From: Chloroflexota bacterium
GTDB lineage: Bacteria > Chloroflexota > Dehalococcoidia > Dehalococcoidales > UBA2162
DNA: 64,000 nt
Reading direction: 5' to 3'
NCBI GenBank assembly: GCA_043804635.1
Contig: JAZDIU010000085.1
Coordinates: forward strand, 3,120 to 67,119
Shown: piece by piece, positions 41,520 to 44,750 of the stretch
Layout: every line of letters begins with the position of its first letter
Numbering within the stretch: the first letter of the stretch is position 1
Position numbers and translations under genes: made by a program
The notes under the pieces: model-generated
Told to the model about the DNA's origin: nothing
The model's database searches: none
Seen by the model: only the letters and a program-made list of their open reading frames with translations

Positions 41520-41570
41520 TACTAGAGATTATGTTTTTTTAATTCTAACACAGTGCTGAAAACAGACACA

Positions 41571-41609
41571 AAAACTAAGGAGGAGGCTTCACCCTCCTCC
41601 TTAGTTTTT
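41571..41609. terminator. Bidirectional intrinsic terminator
   Basis: AAAACTAAGGAGGAGG-CTTCAC-CCTCCTCCTTAGTTTT, a perfect inverted repeat. Confidence 0.75.
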
Positions 41610-41630
41610 CTACCAATCGGACTACGAATA

Positions 41631-42356
41631 GTGACCTGTGTAGTCTTGAGCGTAGCGGCGTTTGCGGTACCACCAAGCTATATTGACTGTGACTTAAGAA
41701 GTGGTATCATTACTGGGGGCAGGTCAGCCGGCCTTAGCGATTGTTTTTCCTGTCACGGTCAGTCAGCAGTCAAACCTTACCCGGCTGACCACGTCGGCAG
41801 AACCAATGAGCTTTGTACAGTCTGTCATAAACCGTCACAAGTTTCTGTCCCATCGCCAACTCCGCCACCGAAGGGACCGCAGATACCGCACAGTATAATC
41901 GGGCTTACCGATTGCTATTCCTGCCATGGCCCCGGCTCGGTGCGTCCCTATCCGGCAAATCATGTCGGCAGAACAAATGCTCTATGTATCGTATGCCACG
42001 ACCCACCTCAGTTGACTACACGCCCACCGGCGTCTCCTCCTCCTCCAGCAATACCCATACCGCATAGCATTACCGGCCTCGAAGATTGCTTCCTGTGCCA
42101 TGGTCCGGGGTCGGTGCGTCCATACCCGGCTAATCATGTGGGTAGAACCAATGCTCTGTGCATTATCTGCCATAAGCCGTCTCCGGTAGTTAGGCCGCCA
42201 TCGTCACCACCTCCAGCCACTCCTATCCCACACACGATAGTCGGACGCAGCGATTGCCTATCGTGCCATAATTTGGGAGGGATAAAGCCCTTCCCTGCCA
42301 ACCACGCTGGCAGGACTAATGCTCAGTGCACAATCTGTCATAAGCCTCCCCCTTAG
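41631..42356 (+). CDS. Octaheme c-type cytochrome made of four tandem diheme modules; 5' end uncertain, possibly truncated
   Basis: Eight CxxCH motifs in four PH.I.G..DCxxCH....P(Y/F)PA.H.GRTN..CxxCH modules with Pro-rich linkers. No clear RBS or start; 41631 is an in-frame GTG. Confidence 0.75.
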   Translation: MTCVVLSVAAFAVPPSYIDCDLRSGIITGGRSAGLSDCFSCHGQSAVKPYPADHVGRTNELCTVCHKPSQVSVPSPTPPPKGPQIPHSIIGLTDCYSCHGPGSVRPYPANHVGRTNALCIVCHDPPQLTTRPPASPPPPAIPIPHSITGLEDCFLCHGPGSVRPYPANHVGRTNALCIICHKPSPVVRPPSSPPPATPIPHTIVGRSDCLSCHNLGGIKPFPANHAGRTNAQCTICHKPPP

Positions 42357-42365
42357 CGTGCTAAT

Positions 42366-42701
42366 TCACAGGCAGACCGCATCCGACTCGAGCATCGATT
42401 GAATCGACTTTGTCATTGTGGTTGGCTTGCCTGCCTTCAGTTTATCGGTGAGTTCGAAATATTCGAGGCAGGTTGTGCAGGCTAAAATCTCTACGCCTTG
42501 TTCCACGAGTTTTTGAACGTGGTTCAGGACGGGAGAACCTTCGCAGACCAGGCGAACCCCGGCGTTTAAGAACACAAGGGTTTTGGGCTTCTCACGGCTT
42601 TCACCGAGCAAGCGTAAAAAATTAGCCATAAGTAACCTGCCCAACTGGTCGTCGCCCCTGCCCATTCCTTCGGACTGTATGAAAAATACTCTAGAAACCA
42701 T
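42366..42701 (-). CDS. yedF: YedF-like selenium-metabolism protein (DsrE-like domain only)
   Basis: GMGRGDDQLGRLLMANFL, FLNAGV, GVEILACTTCLEYFEL. Start at the ATG at 42701 after GGAGG. Confidence 0.8.
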   Translation of the reverse strand: MVSRVFFIQSEGMGRGDDQLGRLLMANFLRLLGESREKPKTLVFLNAGVRLVCEGSPVLNHVQKLVEQGVEILACTTCLEYFELTDKLKAGKPTTMTKSIQSMLESDAVCL

Positions 42702-42731
42702 TAATAACCTCCGTGTGGTTTTTATTCGCAT

Positions 42732-44006
42732 CTAGCCTTTAATCATTTCTAGGAAAGCTCCGATTCTGGTCTTAAGCTGCCCCATATCTTCGTCACTGTA
42801 GTCGGTCTCGACTCGTAGAAGCGGAATACCAGCTTCCTTCAATCGCTTCTCGACTTTAACTGCTTCACTAGCATAGGTATGGCAGAAAAGTAGGTTGTAG
42901 TGGATAATACCGTCAGCTTGGTATTCTTTAGCTAAATTTACGATGTCGTCTAGCCGTTCGTCGTTTGGCGTAAAGCAAGCACAATGTATGTTCATATACC
43001 GCTCAGCGAGATTCTTAATCTGTTCTTCTAAAGACTTTCCATGTTTCACGAGTTCAGCAAAATGGCGGGTGCCGGTGCAGGATTCTTCGCAAACAACGAC
43101 GGCTCCGCTGGTTTCCAAAATGTGGTGTAGCTTCCAGTTAGGAATTGCCATCGGGCTGCCCGAAACGAGGATACGCGGTGCGTTTACTGGAGCAACGCCT
43201 TCGCCTTTCGCTACGCGCTCGGTCAATTCGTCGCAGAGAGCGTTTACCTGTTCTGTGCAGCGTTTGACATCGTCATAAAATGAAACCTGGGTGACCAGAA
43301 GGGCATCCTTACCGCTGATGGGGACGGGCTTGAATTTACGCAGATTATAGAGCCGTTGCAGAGCTCGGCGGCGTTCATTGACGAGTTCGATAGCTTGATT
43401 TAATTTGCCGGTGGTTATCTTGTTTCCGGTCAGCTTTACGATTACGTCTTTAAAAGCCCAGACTTCCTTTAGCCATAGCTCCCGGCTTTGGGGAGTCTTT
43501 TTGTTGGGCACTTCCATCACATATACGGGCTGGTGCTGGGCTAGAAGCTCGAACATTTTCTTTTTGCCGTCGCAGGTCGTCTCTCCGACAATTAGATGAC
43601 TGGACTGAACATAAGGGCAAATTCTCCCCAGCTTAAAGCCGAAAGACGACTTGATAAGAGCGCAGGTATTACGGGGCAGGACTTCTTCAGCTATTGGAAT
43701 AGAGAATTGTGCTCCGGCACAAAGACCGACTGGAATCGCCCCAGCCGCCCAGACCAACTCTTCCGGGACAAACACGCAATAGGTAGCAACCACTTTGCCG
43801 CCGTTTTTAGCATGCTCCCTGAGTTCCCTGACTCTGATTCCGTGGATATCGCCGACTACAAAATCGAAGAAACCCATACCCTTGGGACGGTCTTTCTGTG
43901 AAAGGTAGACCTGCTGGTAAATGGGCCCCAGCCCGCTCAAGAGCGTATCGTGGGATTTTAAATCTATGCCTAATTCTTTCCACATCTGGATATTTTCAGA
44001 AGTCAT
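42732..44006 (-). CDS. Double-cubane cluster-containing anaerobic reductase (DCCP; 2-hydroxyacyl-CoA dehydratase family)
   Basis: MWKELGIDL..HD, YCVFVPEE, GLCAG, LPRNTCALIKS, GETTCDGKKK, EESCTG, CACFTPN, FCHTY, ETDYS. Start at the ATG at 44006 after GAGGAG. Confidence 0.88.
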   Translation of the reverse strand: MTSENIQMWKELGIDLKSHDTLLSGLGPIYQQVYLSQKDRPKGMGFFDFVVGDIHGIRVRELREHAKNGGKVVATYCVFVPEELVWAAGAIPVGLCAGAQFSIPIAEEVLPRNTCALIKSSFGFKLGRICPYVQSSHLIVGETTCDGKKKMFELLAQHQPVYVMEVPNKKTPQSRELWLKEVWAFKDVIVKLTGNKITTGKLNQAIELVNERRRALQRLYNLRKFKPVPISGKDALLVTQVSFYDDVKRCTEQVNALCDELTERVAKGEGVAPVNAPRILVSGSPMAIPNWKLHHILETSGAVVVCEESCTGTRHFAELVKHGKSLEEQIKNLAERYMNIHCACFTPNDERLDDIVNLAKEYQADGIIHYNLLFCHTYASEAVKVEKRLKEAGIPLLRVETDYSDEDMGQLKTRIGAFLEMIKG

Positions 44007-44032
44007 TTTTCTCCTCATTCTTTTTATGAAAT

Positions 44033-44070
44033 AAAAAAAGCGATGGTCGAAGAAGCTCCGTACCATCGCT
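44033..44070 (-). terminator. Intrinsic terminator (attenuator) in the DCCP-yedF leader
   Basis: AGCGATGGT-A-CGGAG-CTT-CTTCG-ACCATCGCT-TTTTTT, ending about 27 nt before the DCCP start codon. Confidence 0.85.
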
Positions 44071-44096
44071 CACTGGGATGCGTTTTCAGGCGAGTG

Positions 44097-44216
44097 TTAA
44101 GTGCGCATACGTCTACTTACCTCATCGAGACGGAGGTTCTTTAAGCCGGTGACCAGTGCAAAACTTGCACCGAGTCGGTTATTTCAGACTCAGCGGAATA
44201 ACGTGTGGTCGGTCAC
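44097..44216 (-). CDS. Putative selenocysteine-containing leader peptide MTDHTLFRUVUNNRLGASFALVTGLKNLRLDEVSRRMRT
   Basis: RBS AGGAGGTG 6 nt before GTG. In-frame TGA at 44192-44190 and 44186-44184. SECIS-like hairpin downstream. Frame then stays open to TAA at 44099-44097. Confidence 0.72.
44151..44176 (-). promoter_or_regulatory. Bacterial SECIS-like hairpin
   Basis: GAC(U)CGGUGCAA-GUU-UUGCACUGGUC. The apical G lies 19 nt after the second UGA and 25 nt after the first. Confidence 0.65.
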
Positions 44217-44259
44217 TGCTCTCACCTCCTTCCTTGATTTGGTTACCTTTACTAAACTA

Positions 44260-44289
44260 AGTATAACACGGGAGTCAGAATCTAAACAA
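44260..44289 (-). promoter_or_regulatory. Putative promoter for the leader-DCCP-yedF transcript
   Basis: TTGTTT-18-TATACT with an extended -10 (TGtTATACT). Confidence 0.5.
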
Positions 44290-44303
44290 AGGATTCGCTT
44301 GGG

Positions 44304-44750
44304 TTACGCTTGCCCGCCCGAAATGTAATCGCTTAGCAGGCGTACCTGCAATCGGCACTCTTCGACTTGCACGCCAAGTAAGTCTCGCATCGAAATCATA
44401 CCGACGACTTTTTGCTTATCCACAATAGGGATGTGCCTGATTCTCTTTTGTTTCATTGCGTTGATGGCGTAGTCCAAATCATCATCGGGAATACCGATAA
44501 TCACATCTTTCGTCATAATGTCCCTTATTTTGGTTTTAGCTGGAGTCTGGTCTCGAGCCAGGCACTTTCTCATTATGTCTCTTTCGGTAATAATCCCGAC
44601 GAGTTTGCCAGCATCATCACAAACTGGAAGTGCGCCTCTATCGTGTTCTGACAGTTTCTGGATAGCTGCGGAGACAGTTTCATTCGGTCCGATTAGGATT
44701 GGTGTCCTGTACTTCAAGTCTTTCGTACTCAAAAGGTCGCTTAACTTCAT
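44304..44750 (-). CDS. CBS domain pair protein
   Basis: GALPV...LVGIITERDI, IRHIPIV...GMISMRDL. Start at the ATG at 44750 after GGAGG. Confidence 0.92.
   Translation of the reverse strand: MKLSDLLSTKDLKYRTPILIGPNETVSAAIQKLSEHDRGALPVCDDAGKLVGIITERDIMRKCLARDQTPAKTKIRDIMTKDVIIGIPDDDLDYAINAMKQKRIRHIPIVDKQKVVGMISMRDLLGVQVEECRLQVRLLSDYISGGQA

Follow-up and report, generated by a model that had tools for sequence, protein, structure and literature searches.

The 64,000-nt stretch of Chloroflexota DNA analysed here (contig JAZDIU010000085.1; the whole stretch is called the window below) carries on its minus strand an operon that begins with a gene for DCCP, a double-cubane-cluster-containing anaerobic reductase, and ahead of it a leader that may act as a transcription attenuator sensing selenocysteine (Sec). 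The leader combines a Shine-Dalgarno (SD) sequence, a short open reading frame (ORF) with two in-frame UGA codons, a hairpin resembling a selenocysteine insertion sequence (SECIS) and an intrinsic terminator. An earlier note, made from the window's letters, had proposed such an attenuator; when the minus strand is read, all of its elements, among them the SD, the GTG start and the 39-codon ORF with two UGAs, lie where it placed them. The features are the following, in the order of transcription.

44260..44268, minus strand: promoter-like extended -10 (TGTTATACT), seen in the sequence about 28 nt 5′ of the SD; its promoter role is putative.
44231-44223, minus strand: SD, AAGGAGGTG, seen in the sequence.
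44212..44231, minus strand: region 1, the leader's translation-initiation region (TIR; AAGGAGGUGAGAGCAGUGAC), made up of SD, spacer and GUG start and conserved far beyond the SD.
44216-44214, minus strand: leader start GTG, seen in the sequence.
44097..44216, minus strand: leader ORF, 39 codons and a TAA, in which codons 9 and 11 are UGA; seen in the sequence, with an equivalent ORF in 45 of 45 copies.
44184..44192, minus strand: UGA-GUC-UGA, the proposed sensing codons (UGAs at 44192-44190 and 44186-44184), seen in the sequence.
44151..44176, minus strand: SECIS-like hairpin GAC(T)CGGTGCAA / GTT / TTGCACTGGTC, with upper stem GGUGCAA/UUGCACU and loop GUU at 44164-44162.
44130..44154, minus strand: region 2 (GGUCACCGGCUUAAAGAACCUCCGU), predicted anti-TIR strand of a helix P1 and 5′ strand of the antiterminator, from consensus fold, pair counts and duplex tests.
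44099-44097, minus strand: leader stop TAA, seen in the sequence.
44033..44069, minus strand: intrinsic terminator, a 30-nt hairpin (44069-44040) followed by U7 (44039-44033), from sequence and fold.
44050..44061, minus strand: region 3, the terminator top (ACGGAGCUUCUU), predicted 3′ strand of the antiterminator, from constrained folds and duplex tests.
42732..44006, minus strand: DCCP, the first gene (NF040772, 513.2 bits, cutoff 350), with its ATG at 44006.
42366..42731, minus strand: the DsrE-like C-terminal half of YedF, 121 aa, the second gene (TIGR03527, 123.2 bits, cutoff 110).

Read with TGA as U, the leader ORF encodes VTDHTLFR-U-V-U-NNRLGASFALVTGLKNLRLDEVSRRMRT. The G of the hairpin loop, at 44164, is 25 and 19 nt past the two UGAs, and the hairpin lies about 130 nt 5′ of the DCCP SD. 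The terminator reads GCGATGGT-A-CGGAG-CTT-CTTCG-ACCATCGC, then T7, and AAGAACCTCCGT (44141-44130) in the leader is complementary to ACGGAGCTTCTT (44061-44050) over 12 nt. Compared with 200 dinucleotide shuffles, the fold of the 241-nt window leader has a z-score of -2.86. The operon had been described as DCCP-yedF; the DCCP assignment holds, and the second gene matches TIGR03527 only over model positions 86-191 of 194, so it is not a full YedF. Rfam 15 over window positions 43800-44500 gives only two chance snoRNA matches (E 0.54 and 2), both over the DCCP start, and at gathering score gives none over the leaders in 8 loci; the leader is missed by gene callers and by Rfam.

The leader is not confined to this locus. 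BLAST of 301 nt of leader against 60 relatives returns two full-length homologues and several partial ones, and a three-way alignment conserves the SD, the start, both in-frame UGAs (a 6-nt indel preserves the frame), the hairpin with compensatory changes, CTCCGTCT, the position of the stop and the terminator. An nhmmer profile run over 80 DCCP loci, taken from one genome per species, finds 16 distinct leaders, all in Chloroflexota. We then built a covariance model of the 5′ block (118 positions, 21 pairs), which at a threshold of E <= 0.001, on E-values that are rough, matches in 20 of the 38 genomes of the family; among 151 genomes sampled at each wider rank, the window's own included each time, it matches in 17 from the order, 7 from the class and 3 from the phylum. 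One match falls in another class. Together, the leader of about 200 nt occurs at 40 places in 38 Chloroflexota genomes and on 5 other contigs, which makes 45 copies, and 44 of these 45 related loci match the 5′-block model with E from 1e-8 to 1e-26. These covariance-model matches put the leader far beyond chance. No two of 44 leaders compared are identical over their first 200 nt. Most of the genomes are incomplete metagenome bins.

The anatomy of the leader is constant. Each of the 45 copies has its SD and start codon, and the ORF that follows contains an in-frame UGA; two copies (L052 and that of G255) were left out of the further statistics, so that n=43. The first regulatory codon is UGA in all 43 leaders and UGA-x-UGA is found in 40; the other three carry a sense codon in place of one UGA (CGC in L044, CGA in G018 and GGU in G163), never another stop. 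The first UGA is codon 11 in 29 leaders (range 7-13), and the codon before it is ACC in 28 and ACU in 4, mostly preceded by UUC or UUU. The terminal stop of the ORF is UAG in 23 leaders, UAA in 11 and UGA in 9, always 13-46 nt past region 2 and 19-58 nt ahead of the terminator. The contrast between a regulatory codon that is always UGA and a final stop that drifts suggests that UGA identity itself is under selection. In 19 of the 43 leaders the 70 nt ahead of the SD contain a TGnTAnnnT motif, which is suggestive only, and a sigma-70 scan gave no call at the extended -10 of the window.

An automatic search picked out a terminator hairpin with a U-run in 39 of 44 leaders, one of these picks being wrong, and inspection by eye added five more, some with weaker U-tracts, so a terminator is identified in 44 of 45 copies in all; no recognisable terminator was found in the leader of G255. 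In that genome (G255:C2, locus L159), direct repeats of about 45 nt (..CCUCUCCCAUCRAGGGAGAGG..) lie between the leader and a YedE-like gene and may be an insertion.

What is conserved is RNA. In six copies (G016, G034, G231, G127, G255 and G002) the nucleotides of the hairpin and of region 2 are retained and read in another frame, giving ..MQVLRQSFARR instead of ..GAGSASVICSK, and the peptide tails vary in length and sequence among copies. After the UGAs, the entropies of the three codon positions are flat (0.85, 0.90 and 0.83), with no codon periodicity. With the frame over the conserved nucleotides varying from copy to copy, the target of selection is the RNA and not a selenopeptide; a conserved selenopeptide is excluded. 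Before the UGA the corresponding entropies are 0.99, 0.97 and 1.14, and the F-T motif there may be conserved at the level of the peptide.

The consensus fold of 15 leaders (RNAalifold) contains the top of the hairpin and the long-range helix P1, in which the TIR strands GGAGGU, GAGC and AUGA(C) pair with GUCAU / GCUC / ACCUCC just 3′ of the hairpin. P1 is thus predicted to sequester the leader's own ribosome-binding region, a feature that the earlier note had not described. We counted pairs on 44 model-aligned leaders, an alignment that leans towards the model: 94.1% of the cells of P1 and the hairpin top are paired, against 35-49% in slid controls. Double-sided changes occur in 10 of the 21 pairs, with 40 such cells against 12.0 +/- 2.7 in shuffles (0 of 500 reach 40). 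Helices 1-3, which form P1, are 90-94% paired, with double-sided changes in 6 of 14 pairs (for example, GC 27 / AU 10). The 7-bp upper stem of the hairpin (helix 4) is 97.7% paired; its closing pair is GC 32 / AU 9, another is UA 34 / CG 5 / UG 5, and the G and U columns of the loop have zero entropy. This upper stem with its loop G-U is the most conserved RNA feature of the leader. The SECIS hairpin drawn in the window therefore stands in its upper 7 bp, its GUU loop and its 19- and 25-nt spacing, and not in its lower stem (GAC..GUC), which is not conserved in the alignments. In the window an alternative hairpin, CUGAGUC..GACUCGG (44170-44193, minus strand), includes the first UGA in its 5′ arm and competes with the lower part of the stem first drawn; in most other copies it is the second UGA that lies inside a small hairpin, GAGCC-N4-GGCUC.

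Covariation between distant segments was tested free of alignment, by comparing duplex energies of each leader's own halves with those of halves from other leaders under permutation. The antiterminator (leader UCGAAGAACCUCCGU against the terminator top) has -17.8 kcal/mol for cognate and -14.4 kcal/mol for non-cognate halves (p ~5e-5), and averages -9.8 kcal/mol when region 2 is shuffled. P1 has -23.2 and -20.4 kcal/mol (p ~5e-5), the outer arms of the terminator, as positive control, -13.8 and -10.2 kcal/mol (p ~5e-5), and the TIR against the terminator top, as negative control, -10.0 and -10.2 kcal/mol (p 0.76). Hence both the terminator before DCCP and the antiterminator pairing between 44141-44130 and 44061-44050, each read at first from the one sequence, covary across the copies. 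Compensation can be seen in single leaders: GAAGAACC / GGUUCUUC against GAAGAGCC / GGCUCUUC, CAAAGAGCC / GGCUCUUUG in G223, and in G059 GAAGAGCGACC paired with GGUCGUCUCUUUG, both unlike the consensus. When transcripts are cut before the 3′ arm of the terminator and masked from the 5′ end to 14 nt past the first UGA, the antiterminator, leader (UC)GAAGAACCUCCGU against terminator top ACGGAGGUUCUUC(GA), is in the minimum-energy fold of most of the 12 leaders listed.

Other pairings fared less well. The weak helix that the earlier note saw just after the UAA is not conserved in the alignments. An alternative antiterminator, GUCAUC(U)GC 3′ of the hairpin against the outer 5′ arm of the terminator (GCGAUGGU), has -6.10 kcal/mol for cognate and -6.29 kcal/mol for non-cognate halves (p 0.81), is also not chosen in constrained folds, and was rejected. 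A local hairpin P3, in which CCUCC would pair with downstream GGGGG/GGAGG in the leader ORF as an anti-antiterminator, is present in only 23 of 43 leaders with a mean z of -1.0 and is not established.

The genes behind the leader concern selenium. We assigned the first gene after each of the 45 leaders by clustering and scored representatives, with the following result; PF01206 TusA also scored among the downstream representatives.

DCCP: 19 copies.
ArsP_1-type CSCC permease: 10 copies (representative, PF03773 ArsP_1).
YedE: 10 copies (representative, TIGR04112, 481.8 bits).
YedF or its halves: 4 copies (TIGR03527, 193-201 bits).
Se_S_carrier (DUF3343): 1 copy (PF11823).
PhnD-like putative selenate ABC binding protein: 1 copy (TIGR04553, 326.3 bits).

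The regulon is thus wider than the DCCP-YedF pair of the window. Comparative genomics links these families to selenium use (Lin et al. 2015, PMC5322559). In six genomes selB shares a contig with the YedE or permease operon that is under the leader's control, at a distance of 3-14 kb (G018:C43, G005:C29, G009:C6, G013:C22, G025:C12 and G027:C5). The leader belongs to the selenium gene neighbourhood.

The window's genome (G000; 1.85 Mb, 94 contigs, 89.7% complete) encodes all of the Sec machinery whose presence the attenuator had been said to depend on: selB (351.6 bits, cutoff 242), selA (573.5 bits), selD (378 bits) and tRNA-Sec, the product of selC (74.6 bits), all on contig C56. The selD gene (G000:C56:40033-40959, outside the window) itself contains one in-frame TGA (..RAAG-U-ASKLG..); the hairpin behind this TGA, CUGGGUCC-GGC-GGACCUGG, is not like that of the leader. 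A motif scan of this genome finds no other UGA-linked copy of the leader hairpin, and nhmmer finds a single copy of the leader and otherwise only a weak terminator-like match (E 0.0015).

Four of the 12 closest DCCP loci (L045, L046, L047 and L049) have no leader, and a divergent regulator gene lies 113-167 nt upstream. These are LysR genes at orthologous Dehalococcoidia DCCP loci:

L045:1473-2384, minus strand: NF040786, selenium-metabolism LysR (268.9 bits, cutoff 250).
L046:1448-2356, minus strand: NF040786, likewise (283.4 bits).
L047:1413-2333, minus strand: LysR, like those of L045 and L046 by sequence only.
L049:1467-2387, minus strand: LysR, with the same likeness.

Because the leader-less loci carry LysR, the selenium LysR and the leader replace each other at orthologous DCCP genes. 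Within the window, a gene for a 267-aa protein (41553-42356, plus strand) converges on the end of the DCCP-YedF operon; it contains four repeats of a ..C-x-x-C-H-G..RPYPANHVGRTN..C-x-x-C-H.. unit, resembles a multihaem cytochrome and has weak NCBIfam matches only.

A second family of leaders, also beyond the scope of the earlier note, was recognised outside Chloroflexota. We scanned 68 non-Chloroflexota DCCP loci for short ORFs with an SD whose frame runs on for at least 15 codons beyond an in-frame stop, and the stop was TGA in 9 cases, TAA in 0 and TAG in 1. Several of these leaders have an SD, an ATG, the peptide M-x-x-x-F-G-F-T-UGA, with synonymous variation in the F-G-F-T codons, and 15-20 nt later a hairpin with a GGU-containing loop. 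The family occurs in Desulfobacterota, Syntrophales and unclassified bacteria, with several copies per genome. Searches for F-G-F-T-UGA in five of the genomes concerned give 3, 2, 2, 4 and 0 matches, against 0, 2, 1, 0 and 0 for a reversed-pattern control; three matches lacking the start context were taken as chance. There are 13 distinct copies (L087 (=L167), L108, L111 (=L168), L116, L090, L098 (=L161), L110, L084 (=L166), L101, L170, L169, L164 and L165), about 200-330 nt upstream of genes.

Five of these copies precede DCCP. Two others lie ahead of a gene of the NF041198 family, UshA-like PCGU (seleno)proteins, in its PCGC form (the one that was scored reaches 324.7 bits). A further copy is followed by a gene of the OS_HP2 (seleno)protein family (NF041425, 128.9 bits) that is uninterrupted, and another by the alpha subunit of formate dehydrogenase-N (TIGR01553) with Cys in ..QARLCHSS.., at the position where the E. 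coli enzyme has Sec. Locus L101 (300-2479) contains an F-G-F-T-UGA leader (~317-420), tRNA-Sec at 452-539 (RF01852, 52.6 bits) and selB at 557-2479 (277.8 bits), so the Sec machinery itself appears to lie behind such a leader. The remaining copies stand before an unknown ORF with an HdrC-like gene, a [FeFe] hydrogenase 770 nt away, and a contig end. At the DCCP loci of two unclassified bacteria (L074:845-1190 and L054:2190-2500) the ribosome-binding region resembles that of Dehalococcoidia (GGGGGUGAGA..), an anti-TIR helix is present and there is only one UGA, and L074 also has a GAUGCAGGUUUUGUAUC hairpin with a GUU loop; nhmmer gives only E 0.067 and 0.14 for these two leaders, which are possible links between both families.

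We propose, at a probability of roughly 0.58, that the Chloroflexota leader is a ribosome-mediated transcription attenuator whose sensing codons are Sec UGAs read with the SECIS-like hairpin and whose genes are switched on by Sec scarcity. Decoding of the UGAs as Sec, binding of SelB to the hairpin and this polarity are inferences. Four regions would take part: region 1, the ribosome-binding region; region 2, GUCAU..GCUC..GAAGAACCUCCGU; region 3, the terminator top; and region 4, the 3′ arm of the terminator, with the UGAs and the SECIS-type hairpin in the loop between regions 1 and 2. Transcription would start just 5′ of the strong SD, and a ribosome would translate 8-10 codons to reach UGA-x-UGA, with the G-U-N loop of the hairpin 19-25 nt further on. 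Region 2 could then have one of three fates: it could pair with the ribosome-binding region in P1, pair with the terminator top in the antiterminator, or be covered by the translating ribosome. Without translation, 1:2 (P1) and 3:4 would form and transcription would stop. With SelB and Sec-tRNA(Sec) plentiful, ribosomes would pass both UGAs and run over region 2, so that 3:4 forms and the genes are off. With Sec-tRNA(Sec) scarce, ribosomes would halt at the UGAs and, with new ones loading at the strong SD, fill the first ~60 nt; region 2 would stay untranslated, 2:3 would form and RNA polymerase would read into the selenium-acquisition genes. This polarity is the one favoured by physiology, because the targets are transporters and carriers, and it is also supported by the second family, because that family precedes Cys stand-ins and Sec machinery, which would be needed when Sec is short. 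The attenuator interpretation of the earlier note is supported, and each of the computational checks that it suggested turned out in its favour.

Several points weigh against this proposal. The evidence for it is comparative and computational throughout. Region 1 lies 24-45 nt 5′ of the UGAs, and by the geometry of the leader a ribosome stalled there itself covers neither region 1 nor region 2; that P1 is held open under Sec scarcity would have to rest on ribosome re-loading or steric hindrance, and release by release factor 2 (RF2) at the UGA could be fast enough for P1 to re-form. Full-length leaders hold the terminator in the minimum-energy fold under every mask, and therefore the antiterminator could win only kinetically. 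From the UGAs through region 2 the ORF frame has a stop in 0 of 43 leaders and the other two frames in 13 and 12, so the frame is hardly more open than the others. The covariation tests treat kin as independent, and the separate compensatory events number perhaps 5-8. The leader hairpin is unlike the one after the UGA of selD in the same genome. The presence of selB does not separate leader-bearing from leader-less genomes of the family (above cutoff in 16 of 20 and 11 of 18, respectively). Finally, the argument on polarity leans on the second leader family, which was recognised separately and in a casual survey.

The same device could work with reversed polarity, which we consider unlikely. 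UGA read-through would keep P1 open and leave region 2 free behind a ribosome at the leader stop, so that the antiterminator forms and the genes are on with selenium, and early release at the UGA would let P1 and the terminator form. The leader stop, 13-46 nt beyond region 2, fits this scheme, since a ribosome at the stop leaves region 2 uncovered, unlike in the trp leader; with its ribosome-binding site taken up in P1, a leader that is not translated would terminate by default; and induction of trafficking proteins (YedF, the Se/S carrier and DCCP) by their substrate would also be sensible. Transporters such as YedE, the ABC binding protein and the permease, however, are normally derepressed by scarcity, and the Cys versions and selC-selB behind the second family are needed when Sec is short.

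Quite improbable, in our view, is a riboswitch-like operator worked by SelB, in which SelB, with or without Sec-tRNA, decides on the hairpin between P1, antiterminator and terminator, and translation is incidental or secondary. The hairpin top with its G-U loop is indeed the best conserved part of the RNA and directly abuts region 2, and the scheme would resemble E. coli selAB, where SelB is known to bind a SECIS-like operator (PMC13449736). Such an operator leaves unexplained the conserved SD and start, the UGA identity in 43 of 43 leaders and UGA-x-UGA in 40 of 43, the almost constant spacing of start codon and UGA (at codon 11 in 29 of 43) and a stop that always comes before the terminator.

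We give low credence to a third scheme, in which the UGA is the plain RF2-specific stop of an arrest peptide of 8-12 residues (..F-T-stop), TnaC-like, which would sense RF2 activity or a small selenium compound, with the second UGA as back-up. Most copies have Phe-Thr just before the UGA (the last codon is ACC in 28 and ACU in 4 of 43), the second family keeps F-G-F-T through synonymous codon changes, which points to a role for the peptide, and its read-through tails are short and variable. Against this stand the hairpin that both families have after the UGA, with a G-U or GGU loop and the spacing of a SECIS, the concern of all regulated genes with selenium and the replacement of a missing UGA by a sense codon (L044, G018 and G163) and never by another stop. 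The alternative kept by the earlier note, an independent small selenoprotein, would be a U-x-U peptide for redox chemistry or selenium binding that shares its transcript with DCCP, the two hairpins serving as its SECIS and as an ordinary leaky terminator. It would account for the in-frame UGA-x-UGA, the SECIS-like hairpin and the preserved ORF, but can practically be set aside, as the post-UGA peptide is conserved only where the RNA is, six copies read that RNA in another frame, the tails differ, one Sec is Arg in L044 and G018, and region 2 covaries with both the terminator top and the ribosome-binding region.

Read as a Sec attenuator, the leader works like the classical amino-acid leader-peptide attenuators (trp, his, leu, thr, ilv and pheA of enterobacteria), with one design feature lacking, the coverage of region 1 by the stalled ribosome. 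As in trp-type attenuators, there is a short leader ORF with its own SD and tandem codons of the sensed amino acid, a terminator just before the first structural gene, an antiterminator 5′ strand inside the leader ORF and an upstream 1:2 partner that would pre-empt the antiterminator without translation, and the regulated genes would supply the sensed amino acid. Unlike in those systems, the sensed residue would be the 21st amino acid, and its codon a stop that needs a cis hairpin and a dedicated elongation factor; failure could lead to release by RF2 instead of a stall; the part of region 1 is played by the ribosome-binding site of the leader and not by the segment with the codons, so a stalled ribosome would not cover region 1 to free region 2; and the leader stop is a full ribosome length past region 2.

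The bSECISearch criterion for a bacterial SECIS is a conserved apical-loop G/U 16-37 nt from the UGA. At the level of sequence the leader hairpin fits a candidate SECIS of this kind. Bacterial SECIS elements are stem-loops immediately 3′ of an in-frame UGA (PMC9312934). The leader shares with them a stem-loop 3′ of an in-frame UGA, the spacing of the loop G/U and a genome with selA, selB, selC and selD, whereas its host ORF encodes no conserved protein and the proposed role is sensing, not the making of a selenoenzyme. The SECIS-like element of the E. coli selAB 5′-UTR (PMC13449736) is bound by SelB, has no UGA or leader ORF, lies 3 nt from the selA SD and represses translation. Both would feed the Sec-decoding state back onto expression through a SECIS-type leader hairpin, but the Chloroflexota hairpin comes after the in-frame UGAs of a translated leader ORF, and its output would be a terminator 80-100 nt away. 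By this layout the leader is not of the selAB operator type.

The protein regulator LysR_Se / HrsM targets the same genes, namely the DCCP (2-hydroxyglutaryl-CoA-dehydratase-like) subunit, YedE, YedF and sel genes (Lin et al. 2015, PMC5322559); the discussion of that paper adds that Cys paralogues of Methanococcus are repressed by selenium. Unlike the leader, LysR_Se is a protein that acts on promoters, with selenophosphate as its proposed effector; the leader would be a cis-acting device of RNA and ribosome that reads Sec-decoding capacity. The earlier note knew of no Sec-codon leader attenuator, and we likewise found no leader-peptide attenuator with Sec codons in full-text searches of the openly accessible literature.

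Taking both families together, we tentatively suggest that leaders with ..F-T-UGA and a SECIS-type hairpin could be cross-phylum sensors of selenium status, present in Chloroflexota, Desulfobacterota, Syntrophales and others, and a master switch of the bacterial selenium economy. Low Sec-decoding would turn on uptake and trafficking (YedE, YedF, DCCP, ABC and ArsP-type transporters), selC-selB and Cys stand-ins (Cys formate dehydrogenase, PCGC UshA-like proteins, OS_HP2 and possibly [FeFe] hydrogenase), and the F-G-F-T nascent peptide might slow RF2, making the UGA a waiting site. If true, these sensors would supply a mechanism behind selenium-dependent Sec/Cys isoenzyme switching in anaerobic bacteria. 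Such switching is known for the hydrogenases of Desulfovibrio.

Bacterial selenium sensing is largely open, the only proposed regulators being the LysR_Se/HrsM proteins and the E. coli selAB operator. If the Chloroflexota leader works as proposed, it would be the first attenuator for the 21st amino acid and the first case of a recoding signal (UGA with SECIS) that serves as a sensor rather than in the building of an enzyme. It ties DCCP, YedE, YedF, DUF3343-type carriers, an ArsP-type permease and a PhnD-like ABC system into one selenium regulon, which makes the question of selenium uptake and delivery in these bacteria testable, and it may offer a compact selenium-responsive genetic part.

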